A DNA stretch of 64,000 nt from an uncultured delta proteobacterium (GCA_963785725.1 CAWAWS010000047.1:64001-128000), one strand, 5' to 3'; numbered from the stretch's first letter, positions 7,872-26,321 are shown. Notes: generated by a model not told the origin, from the letters alone. Numbers and translations: made by a program.

Positions 7872-9979
7872 AGCGCCTCACGCTGCGACTGCTGGCGCCG
7901 GCGCTCGTGCTGCTCGCGAGCGCGGCGTCCGCCCAAACGGCGCTGCGCGCGCCGGTCGCGCCGCGCCATCCGCATGTCGTGCAAGTGCACGGCGAAGAGC
8001 GGCGCGACGACTACTACTGGCTGCGCCAGCGCGGCTCGCCCGAGGTCATGAAGTACCTGCGCGCCGAAGCGGCTTACGCGGACGCGATGATGGCGCCGAC
8101 GCGGCCGCTGCAAGAGACGCTCTACCGGCAGATGGTGAGCCACGTGCAGGAGGACGACACGTCGCCGCCCTTTGTCGACGGTGATTGGCGTTATTGGGTG
8201 CGCGAGGACAAGGGCAAGCAGTACCCGGCCTACGTGCGCGCGCCGAAAGCGGGTGGTCCGGCCGAGGTCATGCTCGACCTCGATCGGCTGGCGCGCGGCA
8301 AGAAGTTCCTGGCGCTGCACGGCTGGGAAGTGAGCGACGACGGCCGCCGCCTCGCCTACTTGCTCGACGAGACCGGCTTTCGCGACAACACGCTCTACGT
8401 CAAAGACTTGGTGAGCGGCAAGATCTTGCCCGATCGTCTGCGCCACGTCAGCTCGCACAGCTGGTGCGGCGACACGCACACGATCTTCTACGTCGCCGAC
8501 AACGACGCCAAGCGATCCTATCGACTCTATCGTCACGAGCTCGGCCAGCCGCAGTCGCGCGACACGCTCGTGTTCGAAGAGAAGGACGAACGCTTCGAGC
8601 TCGGCATCGCGCGCACGCGGTCGCGCGGCTTCATCGTCGCCACGTCGCAAAGCCACACGGCGTCGGAGGTTCGCGTGCTCGACGCGCGCGATCCACGCGG
8701 GGAGTGGCGCGTGATTACGCCGCGCGTCGTCGGGCTCGAGTATTACGTCGAGCACGGCGGCGATCGCTTTTACGTGTGGACCAACGATGTCGCGCGCAAC
8801 TTTCGCGTCGTCACGGCGCCTACAGCCACACCCGATCGCGCGCACTGGCAAGAGCTCGTCCCCGCGTCGCCGACGACGATCGTGGAGAGCGTCACGGCGT
8901 TCGCGCATTTCCTCGTCGTCAGCGAGCGCGAGCAGGCGCTGTCGCAGCTGCGCGTCATCGATCTGCGCACGGGCGCGTCGCAGCGCATCGCCATGCCCGA
9001 GCCGGTGTTCGAGGTCGGCGTCGACGCCAACCACGAGCTCGGCAGCGACGTGCTGCGCTACAACTACGAGTCGCTGACGACGCCGACGACCTGGATCGAC
9101 TACGACATGGCGAGCCACGTGACGACGACCGTGAAGCGGCTGGCGGTGCCCGGTGGCTACGATCCGTCGCGCTACGTGACCGAGCGCCTGTGGGCCACGG
9201 CCAGCGACGGTGCGCGCGTGCCCATTTCACTCGTGCGCCGCATCGACGTGCCGCGCGACGGCACCGCCCCACTGCTCTTGAGCGGCTACGGCGCCTATGG
9301 AATGGCCTACGAGATCGAGTTCGATCCGGCGGCGATTCCGCTGCTCGATCGCGGCGTCGTGCTCGCCTCGGCGCACGTGCGCGGCGGCGGCGACCTCGGC
9401 AAAGCCTGGCACGACGACGGCCGCATGCTGCACAAACGCAACAGCTTCACCGACTTCATCGCCGCCTCCGAATACTTGATCGCGCAGAAATACGTGGCGC
9501 GCGATCGGCTCCTCATCACCGGCGGCTCGGCGGGCGGCCTACTCATGGGCGCCGTCCTCAACCTGCGTCCCGAGCTCTTCCGCGCCGCGCTCGTCGATGT
9601 GCCGTTCGTCGACGTCATCAACACGATGCTCGACGAGACGCTGCCGTTGACCGTGGGCGAGTTCGAGGAATGGGGGAATCCGAAGGAGCTGCAGGACTAT
9701 CGCTACATGCTCGGCTACAGCCCCTACGACAACGTGCGCGCGCAGGCCTATCCGGCGATGCTGGTGCGCTCGGCGCTCAACGATTCGCAGGTGATGTATT
9801 GGGAGCCGGCGAAGTGGGTGGCGCGGCTGCGCGCGACGAAGACGGACACGAACCCGCTGCTGTTCAAGATCAGTCTCGATCCGGCCGGCCATTCGGGCGC
9901 GTCGGGTCGCTACGATCGGCTGCGCGAGACGGCGTTCGACGACGCGTTCTTGCTACGGCAAGTAGGGATTAGCGACTGA
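7868..9979 (+). CDS. ptrB: S9A family oligopeptidase B (protease II) with signal peptide
   Basis: DDYYWLR, GYGAYG, GGSAGG nucleophile, DSQV and AGHSG. GTG 7868 gives the signal peptide [22 protein letters not shown] and overlaps the upstream stop. Confidence 0.92.
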   Translation: MKRLTLRLLAPALVLLASAASAQTALRAPVAPRHPHVVQVHGEERRDDYYWLRQRGSPEVMKYLRAEAAYADAMMAPTRPLQETLYRQMVSHVQEDDTSPPFVDGDWRYWVREDKGKQYPAYVRAPKAGGPAEVMLDLDRLARGKKFLALHGWEVSDDGRRLAYLLDETGFRDNTLYVKDLVSGKILPDRLRHVSSHSWCGDTHTIFYVADNDAKRSYRLYRHELGQPQSRDTLVFEEKDERFELGIARTRSRGFIVATSQSHTASEVRVLDARDPRGEWRVITPRVVGLEYYVEHGGDRFYVWTNDVARNFRVVTAPTATPDRAHWQELVPASPTTIVESVTAFAHFLVVSEREQALSQLRVIDLRTGASQRIAMPEPVFEVGVDANHELGSDVLRYNYESLTTPTTWIDYDMASHVTTTVKRLAVPGGYDPSRYVTERLWATASDGARVPISLVRRIDVPRDGTAPLLLSGYGAYGMAYEIEFDPAAIPLLDRGVVLASAHVRGGGDLGKAWHDDGRMLHKRNSFTDFIAASEYLIAQKYVARDRLLITGGSAGGLLMGAVLNLRPELFRAALVDVPFVDVINTMLDETLPLTVGEFEEWGNPKELQDYRYMLGYSPYDNVRAQAYPAMLVRSALNDSQVMYWEPAKWVARLRATKTDTNPLLFKISLDPAGHSGASGRYDRLRETAFDDAFLLRQVGISD

Positions 9980-10466
9980 GCTCGTCGAGCTCTTGCTTGA
10001 ACTTGGCGACGTCGCCGGCGCCGTCGAAGCCTTCGTTGACGAAGCGGACGATGCCCTTCTTGTCGACGACGAACGACGAAGGCATCTTCGGCGGATCGTA
10101 GCTCGACGCCACCGACGCCGACGGATCGAGCAGGACGTCGAGCCCGAGGCCGAGCTGCTTGACCAGCTTCTCGGCGTTGGCGCGCTGCTTGTCGATGTTG
10201 ACGGCGAGGATGACGACGCCTTTGCCGGCGTACTGCTTGGCCAGCTTGTCGAGCTCGGGCAGCTCCTTCTTACAGGGCTCGCACCACTGCGCCCAAAAGT
10301 CGACGAGCACGACCTTGCCGCGCAGCGCCGCCAGCGACTGCGTCGGCCCCTTGAGCGTCGGCAGCGCGAACTCGGGCGCCTTCTGCCCTTTGGACACGCC
10401 GGCGAACGCCGACGTCGCCGTCAGCACGCTCAGCGCGAAGGCCGCGAAAATGGTCGCGACGCGCAT
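9969..10466 (-). CDS. TlpA/ResA-like thiol-disulfide oxidoreductase with signal peptide
   Basis: GKVVLVDFWAQWCEPCKKELP. True start is ATG 10466 (TAATG overlap with the upstream gene), not 11135. Confidence 0.9.
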   Translation of the reverse strand: MRVATIFAAFALSVLTATSAFAGVSKGQKAPEFALPTLKGPTQSLAALRGKVVLVDFWAQWCEPCKKELPELDKLAKQYAGKGVVILAVNIDKQRANAEKLVKQLGLGLDVLLDPSASVASSYDPPKMPSSFVVDKKGIVRFVNEGFDGAGDVAKFKQELDELSR

Positions 10467-11272
10467 TACTTGTTCAGCTCCTCGTCGACCCAATCTTTGA
10501 GCTCGTCGTAAACCGGCGCGCCGTGGAACTTGCGGCCGTTGATGAACAAGGTCGGCGTCGAGTCGATGCCGGCCTTCTCGCCGTCGGCGCGGTCGCGGTT
10601 GACCTTCTCGGCGGCGGCGTCGCTGTCGCGCTTCCAGCGCGGGATGTCGAGCTTGAGCTCGCGCGCGTAACGCTCGAGATCGCTCGGCGCCTCTTTCTCC
10701 TGGTCGCCGTTCCAGATCTTGTCTTGGTACTGCCAGAACTTGCCCTGCTTGCTCGCGCCGATCGCCGCCTGCGCCGCCGGCTGCGCGTACGGGTGCGCGC
10801 GCGTGATCGGGTAATTCTTGAAGTACAGCTTCACCTGCGGATACTCCTCCAAGATGCGCTCGAGCGCCGGCTGCGCGTGCTTGCAGTGCGGGCACTGGAA
10901 GTCCGAGAACTCGACGATGGTCACGGGCGCGCCCGGATCGCCTTTGAGCGGCGCGTCGTGCACGTCGATGTTGAACTTGGGCACGTTGCCGAAGCGCTCG
11001 TCGTAATGCTCCTCGACTTCCGACGGCAAGAGGCCGAGCTTGAACAGCTTGACCATGTAGCGCGCGGCGAACACCGAGCGGCGGCACTTGGGATCGCTCT
11101 TGAGCGACGTGGCCAACGAGTGCGCCTTGCCGCAAGCCGAGGGATATTTGTCGAGCAGCTTGTAGAACGACGCCTTGTCGGTATCGCCCAGGCCGGACGT
11201 ATCGACGTTGGGAACCTGTGCCGCGGCGCTCAACGGCGCCAGCACGAGGCAGAGCAGGACGACATTTCGCAT
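10466..11272 (-). CDS. DsbA/DsbG-like thioredoxin-fold protein, exported
   Basis: GAPVTIVEFSDFQCPHC and GIDSTPTLFING; signal peptide from ATG 11272. Confidence 0.88.
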   Translation of the reverse strand: MRNVVLLCLVLAPLSAAAQVPNVDTSGLGDTDKASFYKLLDKYPSACGKAHSLATSLKSDPKCRRSVFAARYMVKLFKLGLLPSEVEEHYDERFGNVPKFNIDVHDAPLKGDPGAPVTIVEFSDFQCPHCKHAQPALERILEEYPQVKLYFKNYPITRAHPYAQPAAQAAIGASKQGKFWQYQDKIWNGDQEKEAPSDLERYARELKLDIPRWKRDSDAAAEKVNRDRADGEKAGIDSTPTLFINGRKFHGAPVYDELKDWVDEELNK

Positions 11273-11340
11273 GATTGGCCGGTTGTATTGCACGCCGTCA
11301 CCTACAGTCAAGACGCGCCTTTGTGTCAGGCCATTCACCC

Positions 11341-11368
11341 TTGACGGCGCCTGGCCGAAGATTATAAA
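11341..11368 (+). promoter_or_regulatory. Sigma70-type promoter of the TetR-etfBA operon
   Basis: TTGACG-N16-TATAAA. Confidence 0.6.
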
Positions 11369-11374
11369 AGCAAA

Positions 11375-11394
11375 CTGAATGAACAATCATTCAG
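11375..11394. promoter_or_regulatory. Palindromic operator, FadR(YsiA)-box type
   Basis: CTGAATGA-ACAA-TCATTCAG has perfect 8-bp arms, overlaps the TetR start codon and resembles the Bacillus FadR box TGAATGAnTAnTCATTCA. Confidence 0.8.
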
Positions 11395-12065
11395 CGCGAG
11401 CCAAGGCCAAGTCGAGCGGCAGCCGCAGCAACGGCAGCCGTGGCAAGACGTCTGGCAACGGCAAGGGCGGCACGCCCGAGGCCGGCAAGCGCGAGCGCAT
11501 CCTCGACGCCGCCGTCAAAGTATTCGCCGCCGAAGGGTTCTACAACGCCAAAGTCTCGCAGATCGCGCAGGCGGCCGGCGTCGCCGACGGCACGATCTAC
11601 TTGTACTTCAAGTCCAAAGACGATCTGTTGATTCAGCTGTTCGAAGATCGCATGGAGCGCGTCAACTCGACGCTGCGCGAGGCGCTGGCGACGAATGATT
11701 CGGCCGCCGTGCGCCTGAAACGCGTGGTGCGCTTGCACCTCGAGCTGGTGGAAGCGAACCGCGACATGGCCGAGGTCATCTCGGTCGAATTGCGCCAGTC
11801 GTCGAAGTTCATTCGCGAATACGCCAACCCGAAGTTCGCCGAGTTCTTGCGCACCATCGCCGGCGCCGTCGTCGAAGGGCAGCGCGCGGGCGAATTGCGC
11901 TCGGACATCGACCCGTACATCTTCGCGCGCAGCCTGTTCGGCGCGCTCGACGAGATCGCGGTCGCCTGGCTTGTCAAACATCCCGGTTCCAAGGCTAGTA
12001 TCGACTTGCCGCGCGCTGCCGAGCACGTCGGCAACTTATTCATCGACGGGCTGCGCGCCCGTTAA
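11379..12065 (+). CDS. TetR family regulator, FadR/YsiA-like (fatty acid degradation)
   Basis: HTH RILDAAVKVFAAEGFYNAKVSQIAQAAGVADGTIYLYFKSKDDLLI, VELRQS, and context upstream of etfBA. Confidence 0.9.
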   Translation: MNNHSARAKAKSSGSRSNGSRGKTSGNGKGGTPEAGKRERILDAAVKVFAAEGFYNAKVSQIAQAAGVADGTIYLYFKSKDDLLIQLFEDRMERVNSTLREALATNDSAAVRLKRVVRLHLELVEANRDMAEVISVELRQSSKFIREYANPKFAEFLRTIAGAVVEGQRAGELRSDIDPYIFARSLFGALDEIAVAWLVKHPGSKASIDLPRAAEHVGNLFIDGLRAR

Positions 12066-12098
12066 ACGTCACCCGCCACTGCAACAAAGGAGACGATC

Positions 12099-12919
12099 GT
12101 GAAGATCCTCGTCACCGCCAAACGCGTTCCCGATCCCGAGCAGAAGATCAAGCTCAAGGGCAACGAGCTCGATCAGTCCGCGGTCAACTGGCAGCTCAAC
12201 CAGTTCGACGAGTACGCCGTCGAGACCGCGCTCCGACTGACGGAGAACGCGTCGGCCGGCGGCGCGCGCGACGGCGAAGTCATCGTCGCGTCGATCGGTC
12301 CCAAGGACGTGCAGCAGCAGCTGCGCTCGACGCTGGCCATGGGCGCGGACAAGGCCGTGCTCATCGCCGGCGACGACAACGAGCTCGACGCCGACATCGT
12401 GGCGCAGACGATCAAGAAGCTGGCCGAGCGCGACAAGCCGGACTTGATCCTCATGGGCAAGCTCGCCGCCGACTCGGAAGCGAACGACGCCGGTCAGCGC
12501 TTGGCCGGTCTGCTCGGCTGGCCGCAGGCGACGTTCGCGGGCACGATCGAAGTGACCGACGGCGGCAAGGCGCTGCTCGTCGGCCGCGAGGTCGACGCCG
12601 GCAACGAGATCAAGAAGGTGACGCTGCCGGCCGTGGTCACGGTCGACCTGCGCATCGTGGCGCCGACGGCGATCAAGAACGGCAAGACGGCGGCGACGCA
12701 CGCTTACGCCGAAGGGCCGCGCTACGCGTCGCTGAAGGGCATCATGGCGGCGAAGAAGAAGCCGATCGAGGAGACGACCTTGGCGGCGCTCGGCGTCACG
12801 ACGGCGAAGAAGGTCAAGACGATCGCGCTCGAGGCGCCGCCGGCGCGCAAAGCCGGCGTCAAGGTGGCCTCGGTCGAAGAGCTCGTGCAGAAGCTCCACA
12901 ACGAAGCGAAGGTGATCTG

Positions 12920-12920
<1 letters not shown>
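12099..12920 (+). CDS. etfB: Electron transfer flavoprotein subunit beta
   Basis: [25 protein letters not shown] and [24 protein letters not shown]. Confidence 0.96.
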
Positions 12921-13893
<973 letters not shown>

Positions 13894-13907
13894 CGTAAGC
13901 TCTGCCG

Positions 13908-14696
13908 ATGCGGCGGCTGCGCATCGGCGATCCTCCGAACCAACGTAGTCTCCGTGTCCGCGACGAGGGCGAGTCGAACCGGCCCGCCCTCGTTTGCGTC
14001 CACGGCGCCGGCTCCTCCTCGGTCATGTTCATGGATGTCGTGCGCCGGCTGTCGCCGCAGCGCCGCGTGGTCGCGCCCGATCTGCCGGGCCACGGCCAGT
14101 CGGATCCGTGGCATCCGCCGTCGGAAGTCTCCATCGACATGTACCGCGACGCCGTCGGCACCGTCTGCGCCGAGCTGCAGATCGCGCGCGCCGTGCTGCT
14201 CGGCCATTCGATGGGCGCGCTCGTCGCCCTGGCGGCGGCGGCGGCGTGGCCCGAGCGCGTCGCCGGGCTCGTGCTCGTCAACTCGGGCGCGAGCATCAAA
14301 GTCGCGCCCGAAGTGTTCACGCGCATCGAGTCGGATTTTCCGCGCTTCGGCAAGTGGTTCTCGCGGCTGGTGTGGTCGCCGACGACGCCGCTCGACACCA
14401 TCGAGCGCTGGGGCGCCGTCGCGCTCACGGCCGACCAAGCGACGACCGAGGCCGACTTCCGCGCCGTCGCGCGCTTCGACGCCACTGCCCTGCTCGACCG
14501 CATCCAAGCGCCGACGCTCGTGTTGGGCGGTGCGGACGATCGGTCGACGCCGCCCAAGCTGAGCCAGACCTTGGCGGCGGGAATTACGGGGGCGCGGGCG
14601 ATCATCGTGCCCAACGCCGGGCATATGTTGGCGCAAGAGCAGCCCGACATCTTCTTCGCCGAGCTGGAGACGTTCCTCGCGGCGTCGTCCAGCTGA
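13908..14696 (+). CDS. Alpha/beta fold hydrolase
   Basis: VHGAG, DLPGHG, GHSMG nucleophile elbow and AGHM. Confidence 0.92.
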   Translation: MRRLRIGDPPNQRSLRVRDEGESNRPALVCVHGAGSSSVMFMDVVRRLSPQRRVVAPDLPGHGQSDPWHPPSEVSIDMYRDAVGTVCAELQIARAVLLGHSMGALVALAAAAAWPERVAGLVLVNSGASIKVAPEVFTRIESDFPRFGKWFSRLVWSPTTPLDTIERWGAVALTADQATTEADFRAVARFDATALLDRIQAPTLVLGGADDRSTPPKLSQTLAAGITGARAIIVPNAGHMLAQEQPDIFFAELETFLAASSS

Positions 14697-14807
14697 GCCG
14701 CCCGCGCACACCGGCACACCTTCATCCGCGCCTCTTTTGCGCGTTTAGTGCACCCAACGCGATAGCGAATTTTCGTAGACCGCGATACGATACGGCGGTC
14801 CCGCGCT

Positions 14808-16613
14808 ATGACGACGCGACGTAAGCCAACGCTGGGCTGGGTCGCCGCGGTGGGCGCATTGGCGCTCGCGCTCGGCTGGTGTGTCGTGTGCCCTTGGCTC
14901 ACGGCGCTCTCCTTGGCGCACGCGACGGCGCTGGTGCCCATCGAAGGCGCGGGCGCGCTCGTGGTCGGCCTGGCCGGCTGGCGCGCGGCGCGGGCGTCGT
15001 CGACGTTGGGGCCGCGCGGCGCCGTTCGCTTGGGCGGCGTCATGGCGCTGGTCGGCGCCGGCGCGTCGCTGGTGACGGCGTTGGCGCTCTTGAAGCCGCT
15101 CGGCCCCTCGGCCGCGGTCGCGCTCGCGCTCGCCGACGGCGGCTGGACCATCTGCGTCGCGCTCACCGTCATGTTGGTGGCGATGTGGCGCATCGGCCGC
15201 AAGCGCGGCGACGAGTCGGTCGGTCGCGCCGTGTCGCTGCGCTCGCTCTTGGCCGGCGCGTCGGGCCTGTTGGCGACCGCGGCGTGGGCGCTGGCGTCCG
15301 GCCACGTGCTCGGACAGCTGCACGCCGACGCCGATCGCCACGCCCTCGACGAGGCGCGCGACCTCGTCGCCATCGTCGCCGAGCGCGCGCTCATCTCCGA
15401 CGAGCTCGACGACATCGCGCCCACGCTCGCGCCCGCCGGCGGCTACTTGGTCTCGCTCGACGACGCCGGCCGCGTGCTCGACGGCGTCGGCGTCGGGGTG
15501 CCCGCCGGCGCCGAAGTCTTGCTGGCCGGCCGCGACGCCTGCCGCATCGGACCGCGCATCCTGCCCTGCGCCGTGCGCCGCCTCGTCGACGGCACCATCG
15601 TCGCCGCCGCCGTTCCCGCAGTGCCGCTCGCCCGCGGCGTCGTCCTCGGCTTCGCGCTCGCCGGCCTCTTCGTCGCCCTGACCGCGCTCGGCATCGGCGG
15701 GCTCATCGGCGCCGGCACGGCCCGCGATCTCTCCCGCGTGGCGCAGACGCTCGACGAGCTCGGCCGCAACGCGCGCGGCCTCGATCGCCTCGTCGTCGCG
15801 CTGACGCATGACGAAGTCGGCGAGCTGGCGACCGCGCTCGGACAGCTGCGCGCGCGCTTGGCGCCGGGGCTCGCCGAATACCAAGCGGCGCTAGAGAAAG
15901 CGCAGGCCGCCGATCAAGCGCGCACCGAGTTTTTGACGCTGGTCTCGGCGGAGCTGCGCACGCCGCTCGATCGCATCTTGGCCGGCGCGCGCACCTTGCT
16001 CGATCCCGCCGCCGAGCCGCTCTCGGACGAGCAAAAAGAGGACGTGCGCATCGTGCTCACGTCGACGACGCACTTGGTCGATCTCATCGACGAGGTGCTC
16101 GATATCTCGGCGATCGCGACCGGACAGGTGCAGCTCAAGCTCGGGCAGGTCGATCTCGGACAGCTGGTGGCCGACGTCGCCAAAGCGCAGCGACCGCTGG
16201 TGCAGCAAAAGGGCGTCGAGATCAAGATCGACATCGACACGCCGTCACCCGATGCGCGCGCCGACGAACGGCGGCTGCGCCAAGTCGTCACCAACATCAT
16301 CTCCAACGCCGTCAAGTTCACAGAGAAGGGCTCGATCGAAATTGGCGTGCATCGCGAGTCGGACCGCGTCGTCATCAGCGTCAAAGACACGGGGCCGGGA
16401 ATCGCCGACGAGCAGCTGCCCAAGCTGTTCTCGGAGTTCGTGCAGCTGGGCTCGTTGAAGCAGCGCGCGCGCGGCACCGGGCTCGGCCTCGCCATCTGCA
16501 AACGGCTCGTCGAAGCGCACGGCGGGCAGGTCGCGGCCGAATCCAAAGTCGGCGTCGGCTCCATCTTTCGCGTCATCTTGCCGGCGCGCGGACCGGACGT
16601 GTCGCGCGCATGA
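14808..16613 (+). CDS. Multi-TM HAMP sensor histidine kinase-like protein lacking the phospho-acceptor His; ATP-binding domain intact
   Basis: H-box reads FLTLVSAELRTPL (GCG at 15948-15950). N box NIISNAVKFT, G1 DTGPGI, F box LFSEF and G2 GTGLGLAIC are all canonical. Confidence 0.9.
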   Translation: MTTRRKPTLGWVAAVGALALALGWCVVCPWLTALSLAHATALVPIEGAGALVVGLAGWRAARASSTLGPRGAVRLGGVMALVGAGASLVTALALLKPLGPSAAVALALADGGWTICVALTVMLVAMWRIGRKRGDESVGRAVSLRSLLAGASGLLATAAWALASGHVLGQLHADADRHALDEARDLVAIVAERALISDELDDIAPTLAPAGGYLVSLDDAGRVLDGVGVGVPAGAEVLLAGRDACRIGPRILPCAVRRLVDGTIVAAAVPAVPLARGVVLGFALAGLFVALTALGIGGLIGAGTARDLSRVAQTLDELGRNARGLDRLVVALTHDEVGELATALGQLRARLAPGLAEYQAALEKAQAADQARTEFLTLVSAELRTPLDRILAGARTLLDPAAEPLSDEQKEDVRIVLTSTTHLVDLIDEVLDISAIATGQVQLKLGQVDLGQLVADVAKAQRPLVQQKGVEIKIDIDTPSPDARADERRLRQVVTNIISNAVKFTEKGSIEIGVHRESDRVVISVKDTGPGIADEQLPKLFSEFVQLGSLKQRARGTGLGLAICKRLVEAHGGQVAAESKVGVGSIFRVILPARGPDVSRA

Positions 16614-18494
16614 GCCCGGGAGCGACGATCGCAGCCCGCACCGCGATGACGGCGCGCGTGCGCATCTTGGCCGGCTGCATGGTGCTGGCGATCGGCGTGG
16701 CGTTCCTACTGCCGTCACTGTTTCAGTGGGTGCTGCATCTGTCGCCGAACGAAGCCGAATACACGCGGCGCGCGTTCTGGGCCGGCGTGCCGCTCGATCT
16801 GACGGCGCTGACGACGACGGTGTGGATCGGCCTGTCGGGCGTCGATCGCGCGCAGCCGGGCGACGAGCGCGCCCGCCGCCGCGTGTTGGCGCTGCCGTTC
16901 CGCTTGTCGCTGGTGACGGTCGTGTTCGGCATCGTGATGGCGCTGGGCGCGATGGCCTTCGATCAGTACAAGACGCAGACGCCCTTGCCGATCGCGTTCG
17001 GCTTGACGCTGTGCTCGTGCGCGATGATCGCGCTCGTCGCCGTGCCGCTCTTTGCCTTGACGCGCGCGGCGCTCGTGCCGTTGGCGCAGCGGTTGGCGAC
17101 GGAGTCGCCGCCGATGGGCCGGCCCTTGTCGCTGCGCGTGCAGCTCGGCTACACGGTGTTCGCCATCGCCACGGCCGCGGTCGTGCCGGCAGCGGTCTTC
17201 GGCATGGCGCAGCTCGAAGCCGCGGCCGCGACCGAAGCGCACGCGCGCGCCGAGAAGACCGCGTCGCGGCTGGCGGCGACCGCGCAAGAGCTCGACGTCG
17301 TGGCCGCGACGCGCCTCATGACGCGCACGCCGTTGTCGGGTCGCGAGCGCGTCATCTTGCGCGCGCCGTCGGGCTCGCTCATTCCCGACGACGCCGCCGA
17401 CGAAGTGTCGTGGATGCCGTATGTCGAGAAGCGACTCGGCGGCTCGCTGGCCGGCGGCGCGCTGCGGATCTATTACGCGCCGCGCCCGATCTCGCCGGTC
17501 GCGCTGATGTTGGTGACGCTCGGCCTCTTGCTGCTCGCGCTCGTCGTCGCCTCCACGATCGGCACCGCCGTCGCCAAAGACGCGCACGGCGTGGCCGAGC
17601 AGAATCGCGCGCGTCGCCGCCGGCGAAGAGCCGGAGCCGCTCGGCGCCGTCGCCACCGCCGAAGTGCGCCGCGTGACGATGGCCGTCAACCGCCTGCTCG
17701 AGCGCATCCCGCGCTTGACGGTCGAGTCCTTCTTGGCCGTCGAGCGCGCCGAAGAGGCTCGCCGTCTCAAAGCGCAGTTCTTGGCCAATATGAGCCACGA
17801 TTTGCGCTCGCCGCTGAACTCGATCTTGGGCTTCTCCGAGCTGCTCTTGCGCAACTTGGAAGGCGAGATTTCGCCCGGCCAGCGCGTCGTCTTGGCGGCG
17901 GTGCACGCGACCGGTCTCAACTTGTTGCGATTGCTGACCGAGATCTTGGACACGGCGAAAGTCGAGAGCGGCAAGATGGAGCTGCATCGCCAGTCGACGC
18001 CGCCGGCCGAGCTGCTCACGCAGGCGCTGCAAGAGGCGCGGCGCGGTCGCGCGCAGGCCGCCACCGACAAGCTCGTCGTCGAGCTGCAGCCGGGAATGGG
18101 CCCGATTTACGTCGATCCGCTGCGCATGGTGCAGGCGATTACCCATCTCGTGAACTACGCGCTCGACGCGGCCGATGGCGGACGCGCCATGTTGCAAGCG
18201 AGCGAAGGCGAGATGGCGGAGTCGCGCGTGCTCCTGCTCGACATCGAGCACGACGGCGTCCTCGAAGATCACGAGCGCCGCGAGGTGTTCGACGGCTTCC
18301 GGCGCATCGCCGGCAAACAGGGTCTGAATCTGGCGCTGCCGCTGGCCAAGCGCATCCTCGAGCTGCACGGCGGCCAATTGGACCTCGTCAACGCCGGCCA
18401 ATCGGGGCAGCGGCCGCGCTTTCGCGCCGTGGTGCCGATCGGCGTCCGCCGCGAAAAAGCCACGCCCACCCGCGGCGTTCCCCGCATTCCGTAG
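16610..18494 (+). CDS. Multi-TM HAMP sensor histidine kinase-like protein with intact H-box and degenerate ATP-binding domain; one apparent +1 frameshift at about 17603
   Basis: Removing one A at 17603-17604 joins the TM region (ORF 16610) to the kinase core (ORF 17664..18494) through a HAMP-like segment. H-box FLANMSHDLRSPL; N, G1 and G2 boxes degenerate. Confidence 0.85.
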
Positions 18495-18563
18495 CTCATT
18501 TTGACGAATCCATAAATCGCGCGTAACGGAAGCTTGCGTAGGCGTAGCGACCAAATTGTCCTG

Positions 18564-18572
18564 TGATATAAT
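18564..18572 (+). promoter_or_regulatory. Extended -10 promoter upstream of the MoxR operon
   Basis: TGATATAAT (TGn-TATAAT), 15 nt before ATG 18588. Confidence 0.6.
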
Positions 18573-18587
18573 GACTCGCGAATCTCT

Positions 18588-19577
18588 ATGACCGTCTCAC
18601 CAGTTCCACTCGAGCCACCCGAACGGCCGCGCGATGCCCGCGCCGCGCTCTCACGACTAGAAACGGCCGTCGCGCGCGTCATTCACGGCAAAGGCGCGGT
18701 CGTGCGCATGGCCATCAGCGCGCTGGCGGCGCGCGGCCACGTGCTCATCGAAGACGTGCCCGGTGTCGGCAAGACCACGCTCGCTCGCGCCTTGGCGCGC
18801 GCCATCGGCGGCACGTTCCGCCGCATTCAGTTCACGTCCGATCTATTGCCGTCGGACATCCTCGGCGTCACCATCTTCAACCAAGAGTCGGGCCGCTTCG
18901 AGTTTCGCCGCGGTCCCATCTTCGCCAACGTCGTGCTCGCGGACGAGATCAACCGCACGACGCCGCGCACGCAGTCGTCGCTGCTCGAAGCCATGAGCGA
19001 AGGCCGCGTCTCGCTCGACAACTTCACGCACGAGCTCGATCAGCCGTTCATCGTCCTGGCGACGCAGAACCCGCTCGAGCACTTCGGCACCTATCCCTTG
19101 CCCGAGTCGCAGATGGATCGTTTCCTGTTGCGCTTGCGCATGGGCTATCCGTCGCCGGCCGACGAACGGCGCGTGGTCACCTCGGCGCAGCTCGAAGATC
19201 CGGTGGAGAGCCTGCAGCCGGTCGTCGACGCCACCGACATCGCGGCGATTCAGCACGCGGCGGCGCGCGTGCGCGTCGAAGATGCGCTCGTCGATTACGG
19301 CCAGCGCGTCGTCAGCGCCACGCGCGAGTCGCCGTTCTTGGCGCTCGGCGTGTCACCGCGCGGCTTTCAAGGCTGGTATCGCGTCGCCAAGTCGCGCGCG
19401 CTCATCGGCGGTCGCGACTTCGCCGTGCCCGACGACTTCAAAGAGACCGCGCTGCCGGCGCTCGCGCATCGCCTGGTGCTGTCGGGTGGCGGCGCCGGCG
19501 AGCCGCTCGGCCGCGCGCGTGAAGAGGCGGAGCGCGTCCTGACCAATCTCCTCGAGCGCATCCCGGTTCCCGCGTAG
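18588..19577 (+). CDS. MoxR family AAA+ ATPase
   Basis: EDVPGVGKT, RIQFTSDLLPSD, LADEINR, ATQNP and YPLPESQMDRF. Confidence 0.95.
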   Translation: MTVSPVPLEPPERPRDARAALSRLETAVARVIHGKGAVVRMAISALAARGHVLIEDVPGVGKTTLARALARAIGGTFRRIQFTSDLLPSDILGVTIFNQESGRFEFRRGPIFANVVLADEINRTTPRTQSSLLEAMSEGRVSLDNFTHELDQPFIVLATQNPLEHFGTYPLPESQMDRFLLRLRMGYPSPADERRVVTSAQLEDPVESLQPVVDATDIAAIQHAAARVRVEDALVDYGQRVVSATRESPFLALGVSPRGFQGWYRVAKSRALIGGRDFAVPDDFKETALPALAHRLVLSGGGAGEPLGRAREEAERVLTNLLERIPVPA

Positions 19578-19583
19578 GCGAAG

Positions 19584-20711
19584 ATGCCGCGCCGCCGTAG
19601 CAATTGGGAGCGCGCCGCCGGTTGGATGCGCGTCGCCGCGTGGCGCTTTGGCCGCCGCCTGCGCAAGTGGTGGAAACCGCCGCGGCGCCTGCAGTTCACG
19701 CGCGAGGGCAAGTACTTCGTCGGCATCACCATCGGCGTCGGCTTCGCGGCCATCAACACCGGCAACAACCTGCTCTACCTCCTGCTCGGCATGATGCTGT
19801 CGCTCATCATTGCCTCCGGGATCATGAGCGAGCTGTCGCTGCGCGATCTGACGGTCACGCGCCAGCCGCCCTCGCGCATCCACGCGCGCCGGCCGTTTCT
19901 GATGGGCATCGGGCTCGCCAACGGCAAGAAGCGGCTGCCTTCGTTCTCGGTCGAGGTCGAGGATTTGGTCGGCGAGCGGCCGCTCGACAAGAAGTGTTAC
20001 TTCCTGAAGCTGCCCGCGGGACGACTGCAGCACACCTCCTATCGCCACACGTTTCCCCGCCGCGGCCGCTACACGTACTCGGGCTTTCGGCTGTCGACGA
20101 AGTTTCCCTTCGCGCTCTTTCGCAAGTCGCGCCTCGTCGATCGCGCGACCGAAGTCATCGTCTATCCGCAGCTGGCGCAGCTCGGTCACGCACAAGCGCC
20201 GCGCGCGCGCGTCGCCGGCCTGGAAGCGCAGAACCGGCGCGGCCGACAGGGCGAATTCCACGGCCTGCGCGAGTTTCGCGACGGCGACGATCCGCGCGAC
20301 ATTCACTGGCGCTCGACGGCGAAGGTCGGTCGCACGCTCGTCCGCGAGCACGAGGAGGAGGCCGCGCGTCGCGTCACGATCTACCTCGACAACGCGCTGC
20401 CCGAAGGCGAGCTGTGTCCCGACGAGCTGGCCAAAGACGGCCTCGAGCGCGCCATTTCGCTTGCCGCGTCGCTCGCCGCCGACTATCTCGAGCGCGGTTA
20501 TGCCGTGCGCGTCGTGACGCGCGGCGATGCCGTGCCGCCGTGGCTGCAAGGCCCGCCGCAGCTCGTGCGCCTATTGAAGACGCTGGCGCTGTTGCCGACG
20601 GCGACACCGGAGCAGCCGTTTCCGCCCGTCGGTGACGCCAGCGCCGAGCCGATCTTGATCGTGCGCAAAGGCGGACCGCGCGCGGCCTTCACGCGGGTGA
20701 TCGAAGCGTGA
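19584..20711 (+). CDS. DUF58 domain membrane protein
   Basis: N-terminal TM pair (AAINTGNNLLYLL), FPFALF and EFHGLREFRDGDDPRDIHWRSTAK; follows MoxR. Confidence 0.9.
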   Translation: MPRRRSNWERAAGWMRVAAWRFGRRLRKWWKPPRRLQFTREGKYFVGITIGVGFAAINTGNNLLYLLLGMMLSLIIASGIMSELSLRDLTVTRQPPSRIHARRPFLMGIGLANGKKRLPSFSVEVEDLVGERPLDKKCYFLKLPAGRLQHTSYRHTFPRRGRYTYSGFRLSTKFPFALFRKSRLVDRATEVIVYPQLAQLGHAQAPRARVAGLEAQNRRGRQGEFHGLREFRDGDDPRDIHWRSTAKVGRTLVREHEEEAARRVTIYLDNALPEGELCPDELAKDGLERAISLAASLAADYLERGYAVRVVTRGDAVPPWLQGPPQLVRLLKTLALLPTATPEQPFPPVGDASAEPILIVRKGGPRAAFTRVIEA

Positions 20712-20760
20712 GCGCGCAGGTTCGCGCCGCCAGCGCGCCGCTTGCGAGCGTGACCGGCGC

Positions 20761-22959
20761 ATGAGGTTCAGCGCCATCCACAAAGCGACGTCGTACCTCA
20801 TGGTCGCCGCCGCCTTCGCCACGCTCGCCCTGTCGCACGAGCTCTCGCCCGTCGTCGTCGGGCTGACGCTCGGGGCCGGCCTGCTCTCTTATCCGTTCGA
20901 GCCTGCGCGCCATCCGCGCTTGCGCGCCCGCGCCTGGACCGCCGGCTGGAACGCCGTCAGCCTCGCGGTCTTCGCGCTCACGCTCATCGACGCCATCCGC
21001 GGCGACGCCTTGCCCGCCGGCGTCCGCTTCTTGTGCTTTCTGCTCGTCAACAAGCTGTGGAACCGCAAGTCATCACGCGATTACTTGCAAGCCTACGTCG
21101 TCAGCTTCCTCATGCTCGTCGCCGGCGCCGCGCTCAACAACGAGCTCGCCTACGCCGGCTGCTTCTTGGCCTACGTCATCTTCGCCACCTGGACGCTCAC
21201 GCTCTTCCACTTGCGCCGCGAGATGGAAGAGAACTACCTCATCAAACATTCCGACGACGGCGCCGAACGCGTCGAGGTCGATCGCATCCTCAACTCGCGC
21301 CGCATCGTCGGCTGGTCGTTCCTCGGCGTGACCTCAATCGTCTCGGTCGGCGTCTTCGTTGGCGCGACGTTGGTGTTCTTCCTCATTCCGCGCTTCGGCT
21401 TCGGCTTCTTCGCCACGCACACGCGCCACGGCCAGATGACCGTCGGCTTCAGCGATCGCGTCGACCTGAACGGCTACGGCCTCGTCAAAGACAATCCGCA
21501 AGTCGTCATGCGCGTCGAGTTTCCGGGGCCGCTGCCGGCCGAGCCGCTGCGCTTCCGCGGCGTCGCGTTCGACAAGTACGAGAGAGGTCGCTGGACCCGC
21601 ACGTTGACCGCGCAATCGCCGATGCGTCGTTGGGGCGACCTCGCGTTCATCGGCGAGATGTCGCGTCATTTGAACGGGCCGCGCGTGCGCGACTTCTTGA
21701 GCCACGCGTTGGAGCAGCGCATCTACCTCAATCCGCTCGACACGGCCGTGCTCTTCGGCGCATCGCGGGCGGTGGCGTTCGAGATGCCCTCGGGCGGCGG
21801 TCTCGGCCCGGCGCCGGTCGTCGCCGAGCCGCGACCCGGCGACGAAGTCTATGCCGTCGAGCGCCGCTTCAACCGCGACGGCAACTACAGCTCCGTCGAG
21901 CGCCGCTCGGGCTTGCGCTACAGCGTCTACTCCGACGTGTCATCGCCCGACGAGCGCGTGTTGCGCCTCGCGCCCGACGCCGATCGCGAAGACGACGAGC
22001 TCGCGCCGTATCTCGCCTTGCCCGCCGATTTGCCGCCACGCGTCGCCGAGCTGGCGCGCCAGATCACCCGTGACGCGCACGGCCCGTGGCAAAAGGCGCG
22101 CGCCATCTCCGACTACCTCGCGCGCTATAAATACACGCTCGATCTCAAGCGCGACGAGCGCTACGAGCCGCTCGAAGACTTCCTGTTCGTGCAAAAGGCC
22201 GGTCACTGCGAATATTTCGCGTCGGCGCTGGCCGTGCTCTTGCGCGTCGTCGGCGTGCCGACGCGCTCCGTCAACGGCTTCTTGGGCGGCGAATGGAACA
22301 GCTACGGCCACTATCTCGCCGTCCGCCAAGGCGACGCGCACTCGTGGGTCGAAGTGTGGATCGACGGCGCCGGCTGGGTGACGATGGATCCGACGCCGCC
22401 CGGCGCCGCGCCCGCGAGCTCCGGCGGCGCGTGGAACGCCATGCGCCAGCTCGCCGACAACATGGAGCTGGCCTGGTTCAAGTACGTCATCGAGTACGAC
22501 CTCGGCAAGCAGGCCGACATCGTCAGCGGCGTGCGGCGCTGGGCGCAGCTCGCGTCCAAGCGCGACGCCGTCGACGCGGCGGTACGCCGCTATGCGGCGC
22601 CGCTCGTCGGCGCGGCCGCGGCGCTCTATGGTTTGTGGCTGCTCTTGGGCGTGTGGCGTCGCCGCCGGCTGCCGGCACAACGCATTCGGGGCGGCGCCGA
22701 GGCGCTGCACGCGTATGCGCGCGCGTTGAAAGCGCTCGAACGGCGCGGCTTTCAGCGCGGCGCGGGCGAGACCGGCCGCGAGCTCGCCGCGCGCGTCGAA
22801 CGCGCCGCCGATCCGGCCGCGGCGCCGTTCACCGAGCTCGTCGAGCTTTACTACGCCGCGCGCTTCGGCAACGTCCCGATCGCGACCGCCGAGCTCGAGC
22901 GGCTGGCGCATTCGGTGGCCGCCTCGCCGCCCGCACCAGAAGTCGCTGCCGCCGGCTGA
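20761..22959 (+). CDS. TgpA-like transglutaminase domain membrane protein (DUF3488 / TGase / DUF4129-type architecture)
   Basis: Multi-TM N-terminus; catalytic triad motifs [17 protein letters not shown] and DPTP; C-terminal LYYAARFG. Confidence 0.92.
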
Positions 22960-22970
22960 CCACCTCCGCT

Positions 22971-22999
22971 TTGACGTCGCGCTGCCGAGCCATTAAGGT
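22971..22999 (+). promoter_or_regulatory. Sigma70-type promoter for the surface protein/beta-barrel pair
   Basis: TTGACG-N17-TAAGGT. Confidence 0.55.
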
Positions 23000-23118
23000 G
23001 TTTGACACTTTGGCTCAACATGGCTTTCGCTCGTGACGCGATGACGTCCTATCGGCTCCGTGCCGGTCGCAACCCGCGGGAATCACACGCGGCATTCCGC
23101 TTGCACACCCGCGCCCCC

Positions 23119-24696
23119 ATGCGTCTCACGCTCGCCTGCGCCGCGCTGTCGGCCTTTGCGTTCGCCGGAACCGCCCACGCGCAGACCGCTACCGCCTCCG
23201 GCACCTGCTCCGGCACCGACTCGTCGGGCGGCATGATCGCCGGAACGGTCGGCCTCGCCGTCCCCGGCAGTGACGGGACGACGTTCTCGAGCGTCGCGGC
23301 CGCGTCGGTCCCCTACGTCTTCGGCGCCGCCGAGTGCGAGTGCACACCCGACGAGAGCGACCAGATCAACCTGGAAATCCAGCTCACCTCGGCGTTCGGA
23401 AACTCGGACACGCCAGCCACCGTCGAGGTTTGGGTCGGCTCGGGCTGCGACACGTACACGACGCGCACGACCGTCGGCGAGACGGTATGCGAGAAGCTGA
23501 CGACCGGCATCCCGCAGTTCACCAACTTCACGACGGCGAGCAACGCCGGCCTGCTCATTCACATCCCGATCCCCGGCAACGCCCTGACCGCACCCGTGAC
23601 GCACCAGTGCACGACGGCCACAGTCAGCAACTCGATCTACGTCTTCATCTTCAACGATCCGACCATGCCGAGCGCGTCTTGCACGCTCACTGGCATCACC
23701 GAGCAGGGCCAGCCGCCGACCGCCGTCACCGGCATCACCGCCGGCTCCGGCGACGGCTCGGTCACCCTGACGTGGACCGCGCCGCCGCAAAACAGCTTCA
23801 GCCCGGCCGGATATCAGGTCCTCTGCACCGACGACTGCGGCAACGTCATCAAGCCCTCGCATTCGGCGGCGCAGTATTCGACCTGCGTCAACGGCGTTCT
23901 GCAGCGGCGCACGATCCCGACCGGTGGCTCGCTGCCGACGACGGGTGACGCCGGCGTCGCGACGACGGGTGACCTCGGGACCTTCTCGCTCACCGGCCAA
24001 ATCGACCCCGCAGCCGAGCCTGAAGCGACACCGGCCGCGGAGCCGGCCATGGGCTGCGGCGGCGACGGCGGAACCTCGTTGTTCAGCGGCGACATGGCGT
24101 CCGCGACAAACGATATGGGCACGACGGTCAACAACAACGGCCCGCTCACGAACATGGATCCGAAGTTCATCTGCTCGGGCATGATCGGCGCCACCGGCAA
24201 CTCGGCGCGCATCACCGGCCTGACCAACAACACGCGCTACCACTTCACCGTGCTCTCGTACGACTTCTACGGCAACGCGTCCGCCTCCGCCGTCGTCGAC
24301 GCCATCCCGCAGCCGACCGAGGATCTCTATCGCCGCTATCGCGACTCCGGCGGCGCCGCCGGCGGCTGCTTCATCGCCACCGCCGCGTTCGGCTCGTACG
24401 AAAGCGACTGGGTCTACATCTTGCGCGACTTCCGCGATCAGGTGCTCTTGCCGAGCGACACCGGCCACGCGTTCGTCAACTGGTACTACGCCAACAGCCC
24501 GCCCGGCGCCGCGTGGATCGCCGAGCGCCCGTGGGCGCGCGCCGTCACGCGCGTTCTCCTCTTGCCGTTCATCGCCGGCGCGTTCTTCTGGGTCTACTTC
24601 GCGGCCTGGCAAAAGGCGCTCTTCATCTTGCTGCTGGCGGCGTTGGTCATGCGTAAGCGCCTCGCGGCCGCGATCGAGCGAGGACAGCGCGCGTGA
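23119..24696 (+). CDS. Exported Cys/Thr-rich protein with a split fibronectin type III-like domain and CFI-box-CTERM tail
   Basis: Signal peptide from ATG 23119. FN3 halves AGSGDGSVTLTWTAP and ITGLTNNTRYHFTVLSYDFYGNAS. Tail GGCFIATAAFGS...LRDFRDQVL...FVNWYYANSPP followed by TM helices. Confidence 0.8.
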   Translation: MRLTLACAALSAFAFAGTAHAQTATASGTCSGTDSSGGMIAGTVGLAVPGSDGTTFSSVAAASVPYVFGAAECECTPDESDQINLEIQLTSAFGNSDTPATVEVWVGSGCDTYTTRTTVGETVCEKLTTGIPQFTNFTTASNAGLLIHIPIPGNALTAPVTHQCTTATVSNSIYVFIFNDPTMPSASCTLTGITEQGQPPTAVTGITAGSGDGSVTLTWTAPPQNSFSPAGYQVLCTDDCGNVIKPSHSAAQYSTCVNGVLQRRTIPTGGSLPTTGDAGVATTGDLGTFSLTGQIDPAAEPEATPAAEPAMGCGGDGGTSLFSGDMASATNDMGTTVNNNGPLTNMDPKFICSGMIGATGNSARITGLTNNTRYHFTVLSYDFYGNASASAVVDAIPQPTEDLYRRYRDSGGAAGGCFIATAAFGSYESDWVYILRDFRDQVLLPSDTGHAFVNWYYANSPPGAAWIAERPWARAVTRVLLLPFIAGAFFWVYFAAWQKALFILLLAALVMRKRLAAAIERGQRA

Positions 24697-25553
24697 AACG
24701 TCTCGCTCTCGCTTCCTTCTTATTCTTGGCGCTCGCAGCGCCTGCGCACGCGCAGGACGAGAATTACGGCGGCGGTCCCGCCACCGAATTCGGCGAGAAC
24801 GCGCCGCACAACTACGAGTCCTCGCAGAACTTCGCGTTCGAGATCAAGCTCGGCCCGTACTCGCCCAACATCGATGGCTCGCCCGGATTGAACAAGCTCG
24901 GCGGCCATCCGTTCGCCGATCTGTTCTCGCCCGGCAAAGCGCGTCCGCCGGGCAAGCTCTTGACCCAGCTCGAGTTCGACTACGAGTTCTGGCACAAGTG
25001 GTACGGTAGCTTCGGTCTCGGCCACAACATCGGCTACTACCGCCGCACGGCGCACGCGCTCGAGTACAACGGCGGCAACCCGGCATCGCCCTGCGATCCG
25101 GTCGCGAACCAAAAGTGCGTCGGCTCGAGCGGCGACACGACGTCGCTCAACATCATTCCGCTCGAGCTCACGCTCAACTACCGCTTCGATCTGCTCGCGC
25201 GCCGCTGGCACATTCCCATCGTCCCTTACGTCAAGGTCGGTCTGGCCTACTACGTTTGGTGGATCGAGAACGGCGGCGGCTTCCTCTCGATCGCCAACTA
25301 CAAAAACGCCGCCGGCAAAACGACCGACACCGGCTGGGGCGGCACGCTCGGCTGGGTGCTCAACCCGGGCGGCATGTTCCTGCTCGATGTGCTCGACCCG
25401 ACCGCCGCGCACACGCTCGACAGCGAGCTCGGCATCAACCACACCTACCTCTTCTGCGAGCTGCACTACGCCGACATCACCGGCTTCGGCGCCAGCAACA
25501 AGATGAACCTCTCCGACGTCACGCTCAACGCCGGCCTCGGCTTCGAATTCTAA
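24693..25553 (+). CDS. Outer membrane beta-barrel protein, MXAN_2562-like
   Basis: Signal peptide, amphipathic strands, FEIKLGPYSPNID, LDSELGINHTYLF and C-terminal GLGFEF (BAM signal). Family name is from recall only. Confidence 0.75.
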   Translation: MKRLALASFLFLALAAPAHAQDENYGGGPATEFGENAPHNYESSQNFAFEIKLGPYSPNIDGSPGLNKLGGHPFADLFSPGKARPPGKLLTQLEFDYEFWHKWYGSFGLGHNIGYYRRTAHALEYNGGNPASPCDPVANQKCVGSSGDTTSLNIIPLELTLNYRFDLLARRWHIPIVPYVKVGLAYYVWWIENGGGFLSIANYKNAAGKTTDTGWGGTLGWVLNPGGMFLLDVLDPTAAHTLDSELGINHTYLFCELHYADITGFGASNKMNLSDVTLNAGLGFEF

Positions 25554-25577
25554 ACATCGCTATATAAGGTTGTTTAG

Positions 25578-26321
25578 ATGCGCCTGCGAATGATCGTCGA
25601 GTATGACGGCACCGACTTTTGCGGCTGGCAGCGGCAAGAGAACGGGCCCAGCGTGCAAGCCGCGATCGAAGACGCGCTGGCGACGATGGTGCAAACGCCG
25701 ACCGTCATCCGCGGCGCCGGCCGCACCGACGCCGGCGTGCACGCGCTCGGGCAGGTCGCGCACTTCGACTCCGACGCGCGCATTCCGCCGCTCGGCTATC
25801 AGCGCGGTCTGAACGCGATCCTGCCGCGCAGCATCGCCATTCACTCGGTGGTCGAGGCGGCGCCCGACTTCGACGCGCGCTTCTCCGCGCGCGGCAAGCT
25901 CTACCGCTATCGCATCTGGAACAGCCAGACGCGCTCGCCCATGCAAGAGCGGTATGTCTGGCAGCTGCGTCGTCCGCTCGAAGTCGCCAGCATGCAGGAA
26001 GGCGCACGCGCGCTCGTCGGCCGCCACGACTTCGCCGCGTTCCGCGCGTCCGATTGCGAGCGCAAGACGACGGAGCGCACGCTCGCTCGCGTCTCGGTCG
26101 AGCGGTCGCTCGAGGGCTCGGGCGAGCTCATCACGATCGAGGTCGCCGGCGACGCGTTCTTGAAGAACATGGTGCGCATCATCGTCGGGACGCTCGCCGA
26201 AGTCGGCTACGGCAAACGCGCCCCGACCGACGTGCAACGAATTCTCGACGGCAAGGATCGCCGGCAGGCAGGCGTCACGGCGCCGCCGCAAGGACTGACG
26301 CTCGTGCACGTCGATTATTAG
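25578..26321 (+). CDS. truA: tRNA pseudouridine(38-40) synthase
   Basis: YDGTDFCGWQRQ, GAGRTDAGVHA, FLKNMVRIIVG and TAPPQGL. Confidence 0.97.
   Translation: MRLRMIVEYDGTDFCGWQRQENGPSVQAAIEDALATMVQTPTVIRGAGRTDAGVHALGQVAHFDSDARIPPLGYQRGLNAILPRSIAIHSVVEAAPDFDARFSARGKLYRYRIWNSQTRSPMQERYVWQLRRPLEVASMQEGARALVGRHDFAAFRASDCERKTTERTLARVSVERSLEGSGELITIEVAGDAFLKNMVRIIVGTLAEVGYGKRAPTDVQRILDGKDRRQAGVTAPPQGLTLVHVDY

Follow-up and report, generated by a model that had tools for sequence, protein, structure and literature searches.

Sensor histidine kinases are taught as homodimers. Natural histidine kinases that depend obligately on two different proteins are, to our knowledge, rare, the pairs we know of being CheA3/CheA4 and FasB/FasC, the latter proposed in 2025; the Fas kinases are placed in the AgrC-like class and not among the HisKA kinases. 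Here we describe a tandem of two HisKA-class genes (positions 14808 to 18494) in a stretch of 64,000 nucleotides from an uncultured delta proteobacterium, a myxobacterium from soil (GCA_963785725.1, CAWAWS010000047.1:64001-128000), this whole stretch being called the window below. The upstream gene (gene 1) has no phospho-acceptor histidine in its H-box and keeps the canonical boxes of an ATP site, and the downstream gene (gene 2) keeps the histidine and has a degenerate ATP site. Judging from these motifs and their distribution among relatives, we consider it rather probable that the two genes form a functionally split histidine kinase, in which the catalytic and ATP-binding (CA) domain of gene 1 would phosphorylate the histidine of gene 2 in a mixed complex.

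The closest described systems compare with the window pair as follows. In CheA3/CheA4 of Rhodobacter sphaeroides, neither protein autophosphorylates alone, the mixture does, and the split has been argued to allow ultrasensitive responses (PMC3591291). The window pair resembles this system in that phospho-acceptor and catalytic domain are, by its motifs, on separate polypeptides (PMC3591291), but CheA3/CheA4 belong to the CheA class and their missing domains are physically absent, whereas the window pair keeps the full HAMP-DHp-CA scaffold with sensors of its own and only the key residues are gone. In group A Streptococcus, FasB and FasC showed hetero-association and no homo-association in two-hybrid assays, the FasB kinase domain is proposed to phosphorylate H246 of FasC, and the FasC kinase domain is dispensable, FasC being called a pseudokinase by the authors (PMC12675982). 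As in the window, two adjacent genes encode membrane sensor-kinase-like proteins and the same flow of phosphoryl groups is proposed; unlike in the window, where no regulator is linked to the pair, the FasA regulator lies in the Fas operon (PMC12675982). Furthermore, a histidine of FasB is still discussed as a possible site, whereas gene 1 has no canonical histidine and the ATP site of gene 2 has visibly decayed.

In EnvZ, an H243A protein and a G2-box mutant form a mixed dimer that autophosphorylates in trans by complementation, one subunit lacking the histidine and the other being unable to bind ATP (PMC4734776). The same division is predicted for the window pair, which is a natural and conserved gene pair, whereas the EnvZ mutants were engineered from one gene. 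RetS of Pseudomonas aeruginosa, a kinase-dead HisKA protein that keeps its histidine, as gene 2 does, binds the sensor kinase GacS via the DHp domain (PMC5992135). On the other hand, RetS inhibits GacS, a complete kinase, whereas the partner in the window is His-less and inhibition would have no target; moreover, both RetS and GacS are hybrid proteins with receiver domains, whereas Pfam found none in gene 2. Gene 2 accordingly has neither the receiver domains nor the autophosphorylating target of a RetS-type inhibitory sensor, and the RetS and GacS genes are not known to be adjacent or overlapping. DivL of Caulobacter (4q20) is, like gene 1, a HisKA-type protein with its phospho-acceptor histidine replaced (by tyrosine) and its CA domain kept; unlike gene 1, it senses a phosphorylated regulator and controls CckA, and it is not known to be paired with a His-bearing neighbour whose ATP site is dead. 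A literature search, with most subscription journals outside its scope, turned up no HisKA pair whose lesions are complementary and no article on the pair in Polyangia. The initial annotation of the window had no characterised HisKA-type example to cite; a functionally similar pair, FasB/FasC, was nevertheless described in 2025 (PMC12675982). The window pair differs from the known ones in being of the HisKA class with whole scaffolds and sensors of its own, in its point-like reciprocal lesions, and in the intermediates found among its relatives.

Gene 1 encodes a protein with about five to six hydrophobic segments in its N-terminal 300 residues, followed by a weak HAMP match and then by HisKA (1.2e-10) and HATPase_c (1.1e-31), both above the curated Pfam cut-offs and in the order of a HisKA-type sensor histidine kinase. 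The position of the phospho-acceptor histidine in its H-box is occupied by alanine, while the N box (QVVTNIISNAVKFT), the G1 box (DTGPG), the F box (LFSEFVQ) and the G2 box (GTGLGL) are all canonical, and ATP binding is predicted from them. Its closest solved relative is HK853 (E 2e-38), of which the top-scoring chain is the H260A mutant, sharing SAELRTPL with gene 1.

Gene 2, which is interrupted in the window by one extra base discussed below, begins with a part containing about five hydrophobic segments, matching no Pfam family and 70-72% identical across four genomes of the same genus. Its N-terminal sensor region has no similarity to that of gene 1 by blastp (best E 4.8). The second part has a Pfam HisKA domain (1.6e-15) with the phospho-acceptor histidine. 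Behind this, HATPase_c is matched weakly (2.3e-8; 34.9 bits, the cut-off being 26.4), and none of the three N, G1 and G2 boxes is recognised by pattern. In a residue alignment with GacS (7z8n), the second Asn of the N box is replaced by a tyrosine and the Asp of G1 by a histidine, and in G2 the first Gly alone is kept, the stretch in front of it being two residues shorter. In an AlphaFold2 model of the second part (mean predicted local distance difference test, pLDDT, 88; predicted template modelling score 0.80), the DHp region forms two long helices and the CA domain an alpha/beta fold, and by the model and the Pfam score this fold is kept despite the loss of the boxes. The top structural matches of the model are GacS (7z8n), RetS (6dk7), HK853 and DivL, with the RetS-GacS co-complex 7n0e also among the best; by sequence, the best solved match is again GacS 7z8n, with RetS (6dk7, 6dk8) and DivL (4q20) among the best. 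The features that the initial annotation had read from this locus, namely the alanine codon and canonical boxes of gene 1, the intact H-box and degenerate N, G1 and G2 boxes of gene 2, and the ATGA overlap between the two genes, were all found again at the same positions (Table 1). At the level of motifs, phospho-acceptor and catalytic site are predicted to lie on separate polypeptides.

This division of motifs recurs in related genomes. At E <= 1e-60, gene 1 was matched in 15 of 61 genomes, that of the window among them; there are full-length orthologues in 4/4 genomes of the same genus and in 11/14 of the same family, and three more distant matches besides. In all 14 fetched gene 1 loci, gene 2 follows directly behind, one locus ending inside gene 2. 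At the His position of gene 1, the 13 readable loci carry A, A, A, G, V, A, D, T, A, A, R and R, and H in the most distant locus only, and every one of these loci, which come from the window's family and order, has the four ATP boxes in canonical form. In the same loci, MSHDLRSPLNSILGFSELL of gene 2 is invariant, and its N, G1 and G2 boxes are degenerate and variable throughout, even where gene 1 keeps its histidine.

For a wider sample, the second part of gene 2 was matched at E <= 1e-35 in 98 of 401 genomes sampled from the class (Polyangia, Myxococcota, as judged from named matches), including 56/71 of one family. From the 97 genomes other than that of the window, 13 loci had already been fetched, 78 were added and 6 omitted (3 near a contig end, 3 skipped). 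The 92 loci gave 88 readable pairs, or 89 with the window, after L013 (ending inside gene 2), L041 and L085 (ending before gene 1) and L106 (without a kinase gene in front) had been dropped. A search with H-box patterns taken from the gene 2 alignment was abandoned, the patterns being too common: most of its 80 loci were unrelated kinases from many phyla.

By simple pattern scoring, all three ATP boxes of gene 1 and the histidine of gene 2 are present in 89/89 pairs. The boxes of gene 2 are more variable, with three present in 8 pairs, two in 1, one in 30 and none in 50, and the histidine of gene 1 is present in 67 pairs and absent from 22. Every one of the 22 His-less genes stands beside a gene 2 with 0/3 boxes, and in the 8 pairs where gene 2 is canonical, gene 1 always has its histidine. 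Because the complementary defects recur in related genomes, the pattern is far beyond chance; as kin are not independent, however, the co-occurrence across the 89 pairs is to be read as a pattern and not as a statistic. The residues that replace the histidine in the 22 orthologues (A, R, G, V, D, T, E, Y, L and K) are so varied that they fit a position out of use. Of the 89 loci with room for a kinase gene in front of gene 2, 88 have one, the exception being L106, a canonical kinase, so that the two genes are adjacent and co-inherited in the manner of a FasB/FasC-type pair.

The initial annotation had proposed to test whether the two lesions are conserved and always occur together in tandem, which held in part. 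His loss does go with decay of the gene 2 ATP site in tandem, in all 13 classifiable loci of the window's family and order and in nine loci of other families, but distant orthologues keep the histidine of gene 1 (67/89 pairs) and eight keep a normal gene 2, so that the window represents the end state of a series rather than a fixed family trait. Independent occurrence of the genes, which would have spoken against the pairing, was hardly seen: every gene 1 match has gene 2 behind it, and L106 is the sole gene 2-type exception with room. Stop and start codons overlap in 82 of the 88 related loci, with ATGA or GTGA in 70, a single shared base in 6 and an overlap of 8 or 26 bases in another 6; the other 6 loci have a gap. 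One family includes five loci (L060, L096, L099, L100 and L101) in which the GTGA at the stop of gene 1 is out of the matched frame of gene 2, whose first in-frame start lies more than 30 bases away; this may reflect a longer or differently framed N-terminus of gene 2, or an error.

A quick maximum-likelihood tree was computed from the concatenated C-terminal parts with the His column of gene 1 masked. The state of a canonical gene 2 changes once on this tree, and that of the gene 1 histidine at least three times. The His-less rows fall in four places, namely a clade of 16 (SH-aLRT branch support 96), which comprises the window's family and part of its order, a clade of 4 from another family (SH-aLRT 100), and two long single branches. 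A single clade of all 22 His-less rows was rejected (log-likelihood difference 53.7, p of the approximately unbiased test, p-AU, 0.00065), and the loss of the histidine in gene 1 appears to have recurred. With the root assumed on the 8 pairs in which both genes are canonical, the order would run from two canonical genes through loss of the gene 2 ATP site to more than one loss of the gene 1 histidine. We regard it as an evenly balanced proposition that, in this HisKA tandem of Polyangia, the ATP site of gene 2 was lost first and the histidine of gene 1 at least twice independently, giving an obligate two-protein kinase with a single two-gene active site and an AND gate over two unrelated sensors.

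The constraint on single residues follows the same division. In alignments of the C-terminal parts (89 gene 1 and 88 gene 2 sequences, whose numbering is used here), the invariant residues of gene 1 (89/89) include N156, N160, D187, G189, G191, F201, G216, G218 and G220, which make up the ATP-site boxes. Those of gene 2 (88/88) are S64, H65, L67, G76, G87, L115 and D171, of which S64, H65 and L67 belong to the H-box and none lies in an ATP box. Among the His-less pairs, gene 1 has a mean pairwise identity of 0.47 for DHp helix 1 and 0.54 for the CA domain, and gene 2 has 0.75 and 0.34, respectively; where gene 1 keeps its histidine beside a degenerate gene 2, the values for gene 1 are 0.73 and 0.59. 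After the loss of the histidine, the H-box helix of gene 1 drifted and its ATP site did not, with the reverse in gene 2. The invariant residues are those that each protein would be predicted to need for a shared reaction. An invariant ATP site without an acceptor needs an acceptor elsewhere, and an invariant H-box without an ATP site needs a kinase, which makes the overlapping neighbour the nearest candidate in either direction; and since the complementary losses are kept in related genomes, the two proteins are likely to work only together.

A mechanism of the following kind can be proposed. Translational coupling would have both proteins made in step, and they would pair through their DHp helices, most plausibly as a 1:1 heterodimer or, failing that, as two homodimers in one complex. 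Gene 1 would use its bound ATP to phosphorylate gene 2 at His396 (counted along the read-through protein), and from there the phosphoryl group would pass to a response regulator that is not linked to the pair. The two membrane sensor regions being unrelated, the output would likely depend on both sensors (putative AND logic). In complex prediction, gene 1 and gene 2 gave ipSAE interface scores of 0.55, 0.58 and 0.57 (median 0.57), compared with 0.00 for the best of 3 controls, a result in the weak band; the partner pLDDT was 78, and 77% or more of the contacts were common to the runs. In the calibration of this score, 116 of 157 solved complexes attained the mark, as did 2 of 215 mismatches.

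Several considerations weigh against the split kinase. Scores of 0.60 or less comprise 18 of the 157 solved complexes and both of the passing mismatches, and the score may be a memory of solved kinase dimers, such as RetS-GacS 7n0e. As the controls were unrelated proteins, no preference of the heterodimer over homodimers follows from it. The heterodimer model needs autophosphorylation in trans, and the closest solved relative of gene 1, HK853, is a cis kinase with which gene 1 aligns without a gap across the DHp loop; as Ashenberg et al. reportedly described in 2013, the loop between the DHp helices sets the hand of the bundle. This hand matters for the window pair, since the EnvZ-type assay fails for the cis kinase ArcB (PMC4734776), although a complex of two homodimers, by analogy with CheA3/CheA4, would avoid the problem. 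Conserved ATP boxes prove selection for nucleotide binding and not phosphotransfer to gene 2, and every functional step in the scheme is one that we infer from sequence. With regard to the order of losses, the tree search was short, the branches are long, and the His-less group was named after the tree had been seen. There is also no response regulator linked to the pair, as had been noted at the outset: the nearest receiver domains among 150 genome matches listed lie on the contig at 38589-38918 (20 kb downstream) and about 23.6 kb upstream, and 0 of 47 flanking frames from 15 related loci contain one. Finally, 59 of the 89 pairs have a gene 1 with its own histidine beside a degenerate gene 2, which means that gene 2 can be degenerate beside a self-sufficient gene 1 and may act otherwise, for example as a phosphatase or an inhibitor.

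This last point leads to the alternative that survives best, although we consider it unlikely, namely that the two proteins have separate jobs, with gene 1 as a DivL-like nucleotide-binding scaffold or allosteric pseudokinase and gene 2 as a RetS-like phosphatase, sink or inhibitor, to which any phosphoryl group would be supplied by some third kinase or by a regulator already phosphorylated. RetS and DivL stand among the best solved matches of gene 2 in both sequence and fold, as listed above, and RetS is without kinase activity and acts on GacS via three mechanisms (PMC5992135). The same 59 pairs imply that a degenerate gene 2 may at first have done something other than serve as sole acceptor, and at least 133 kinase-like matches in the genome could feed it. 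However, an inhibitor of the RetS type would be left without a target once gene 1 is His-less, and gene 2 lacks the receiver domain that RetS has. In addition, none of the 22 His-less lineages varies in the ATP-site residues of gene 1, translational coupling of the pair persists, and the histidine of gene 1 was lost only where gene 2 is without canonical ATP boxes (22/22), which a shared reaction would fit better.

A second alternative is that the acceptor of gene 1 has moved to a histidine in DHp helix 2 (TSTTHLVDL), where it would be phosphorylated by the protein's own CA domain, leaving gene 1 a self-sufficient kinase. This column does hold a histidine in 14 of the 22 His-less sequences, including all 11 of the window's family (window included), against 10 of the 67 His-bearing ones, and a second histidine of FasB (H284) is discussed as a possible site in the Fas report (PMC12675982). 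On the other hand, 8 of the 22 His-less sequences have Q or R there, and since sequences whose H-box is normal share this histidine, as does HK853 in the alignment (SNHLENL), it is a common residue and not a new feature. A moved acceptor also gives no reason for the invariant H-box of gene 2, and we regard it as highly improbable.

The split kinase further presupposes that gene 2 is intact, and its reading frame in the window sequence is single over 16610-17602 and then continues in another frame over 17604-18494. Both halves were matched by tblastn in 11 related loci, and in 11/11 they form a single unbroken open frame. Metagenome contigs, which stem from related strains of about 97% identity and not from the source genome, were compared with the window over 18 kb (8000-26000), uncovered stretches being uninformative; a soil-metagenome contig of 1085 bases spans 17057-18142 with 31 mismatches, and its sole gap is base 17603. 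Within the 18 kb, four of the five uncompensated single-base differences are bases that only the window has (13445, 13794, 17603 and 22965), and short runs of the same base lie at three of these four sites; the fifth is a T inserted behind 11437 in one X6 contig (depth 3.4), and the remaining indels between window and contigs are compensated pairs or one 3-base insertion. The extra bases 13445 and 13794 coincide exactly with two frame changes of the window's ETF-alpha gene (12920-13900), which is single-frame in the relatives L019 and L025. Because ETF-alpha is unbroken in relatives and the contigs lack one base at each place, the window assembly can be said to carry single-base insertions.

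With relatives reading through, a contig of about 97% identity lacking the base, and ETF-alpha broken in the same way, 17603 is very likely an error of the assembly consensus, with gene 2 intact in the organism. The break, which the initial annotation had marked for re-inspection, is present in the window, and gene 2, unbroken in relatives and free of the extra base in a near-identical contig, is most likely not decaying. That the frameshift is real, gene 2 being a fresh pseudogene of this strain and gene 1 a lone dead kinase, can claim that the base does stand in the window sequence and that the comparison contigs come from related strains and not from the source genome, but it is hardly credible when both halves of gene 2 are 70-84% identical to same-genus orthologues without an in-frame stop, all 11 relatives with both halves matched read through, and two of the four window-only bases break an ETF-alpha gene that is intact in relatives. 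The same-genus genome G002 was dropped as a reference for the frame break, off-frame open reading frames of GC-rich DNA matching each other. In G002 (L033; 9 contigs, completeness 53), the MoxR gene seems to change frame twice relative to the window; this genome may also carry indel errors, from which its low completeness may stem.

If the split kinase is true, the pair would represent an obligate two-protein kinase of the HisKA class that can be read from sequence alone. Its two lesions are those used in the laboratory to tell cis from trans autophosphorylation. The classical EnvZ complementation experiment would have its counterpart in nature in this pair, which would also be a naturally occurring AND gate. 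The evolutionary series in its relatives, from both genes intact through one lesion to both, opens the question of how paralogous kinases become mutually dependent, and it also bears on mixed dimers with one active site as opposed to symmetric signalling and on the wiring of two sensors into a single phosphorylation event. For annotation, the lesson would be that kinases that look 'dead' are to be read together with their neighbours.

Table 1. Positions of the kinase pair, its motifs and the genes behind it, counted from the first base of the window.
Feature	Position	Strand	Basis
Gene 1, membrane sensor kinase-like protein, 601 aa	14808..16613	+	open frame and Pfam
Gene 1 HisKA (DHp) domain, residues 371-437	15918..16118	+	Pfam
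Gene 1 H-box, VSAELRTPL	15942-15968	+	sequence
Gene 1 Ala381 (GCG) at the phospho-acceptor His position	15948..15950	+	sequence
Gene 1 HATPase_c (CA) domain, canonical boxes	16263..16586	+	Pfam 1.1e-31
Gene 1 N box	16281-16322	+
Gene 1 G1 box	16386-16400	+
Gene 1 F box	16425-16445	+
Gene 1 G2 box	16473-16490	+
ATGA overlap of gene 1 stop and gene 2 start (translational-coupling signature)	16610..16613	+	sequence
Gene 2 first part, multi-span membrane sensor region and start of HAMP-like linker, 331 codons	16610..17602	+
Extra base breaking the frame of gene 2 ('a' in cagAatc)	17603..17603	+	window sequence
Gene 2 second part, linker, HisKA with His, degenerate CA; 296 codons and stop TAG	17604..18494	+
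Gene 2 H-box, MSHDLRSPL	17790-17816	+	sequence
Gene 2 phospho-acceptor His (CAC)	17796..17798	+	sequence
Gene 2 CA domain, degenerate ATP-site boxes	18114..18437	+	Pfam HATPase_c 2.3e-8
Gene 2 N box, THLVNYA	18132-18173	+
Gene 2 G1 box, EHDGV	18246-18260	+
Gene 2 F box	18285-18305	+
Gene 2 G2 box, KQGLNLAL	18315-18338	+
Gene 2 stop codon	18492-18494	+
MoxR-type AAA+ ATPase (context only)	18588-19577	+	Pfam AAA_3 2.6e-62
DUF58 protein (context only)	19584-20711	+	Pfam DUF58 4.1e-8
TgpA-like transglutaminase (context only)	20761-22959	+	Pfam TgpA_N and Transglut_core

Upstream of the pair lie genes for ETF beta and alpha and for an alpha/beta hydrolase, and an ETF gene precedes the pair in 5 of 15 sampled loci (ETF-alpha in four, an ETF-domain frame in one). 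The MoxR gene stands directly behind gene 2 in 7 of the 15 loci sampled across the class (L019, L023, L030, L031, L055, L074 and L107), one of these having both kinases canonical. The MoxR, DUF58 and transglutaminase genes may be functionally linked to the kinase pair. The extra base 22965 lies six bases behind the stop of the TgpA-like gene and is absent from a related metagenome contig. Further downstream, a kinase-like match at about 37438 (C47 101438-102571) stands directly before the nearest receiver mentioned above (C47 102589-102918).

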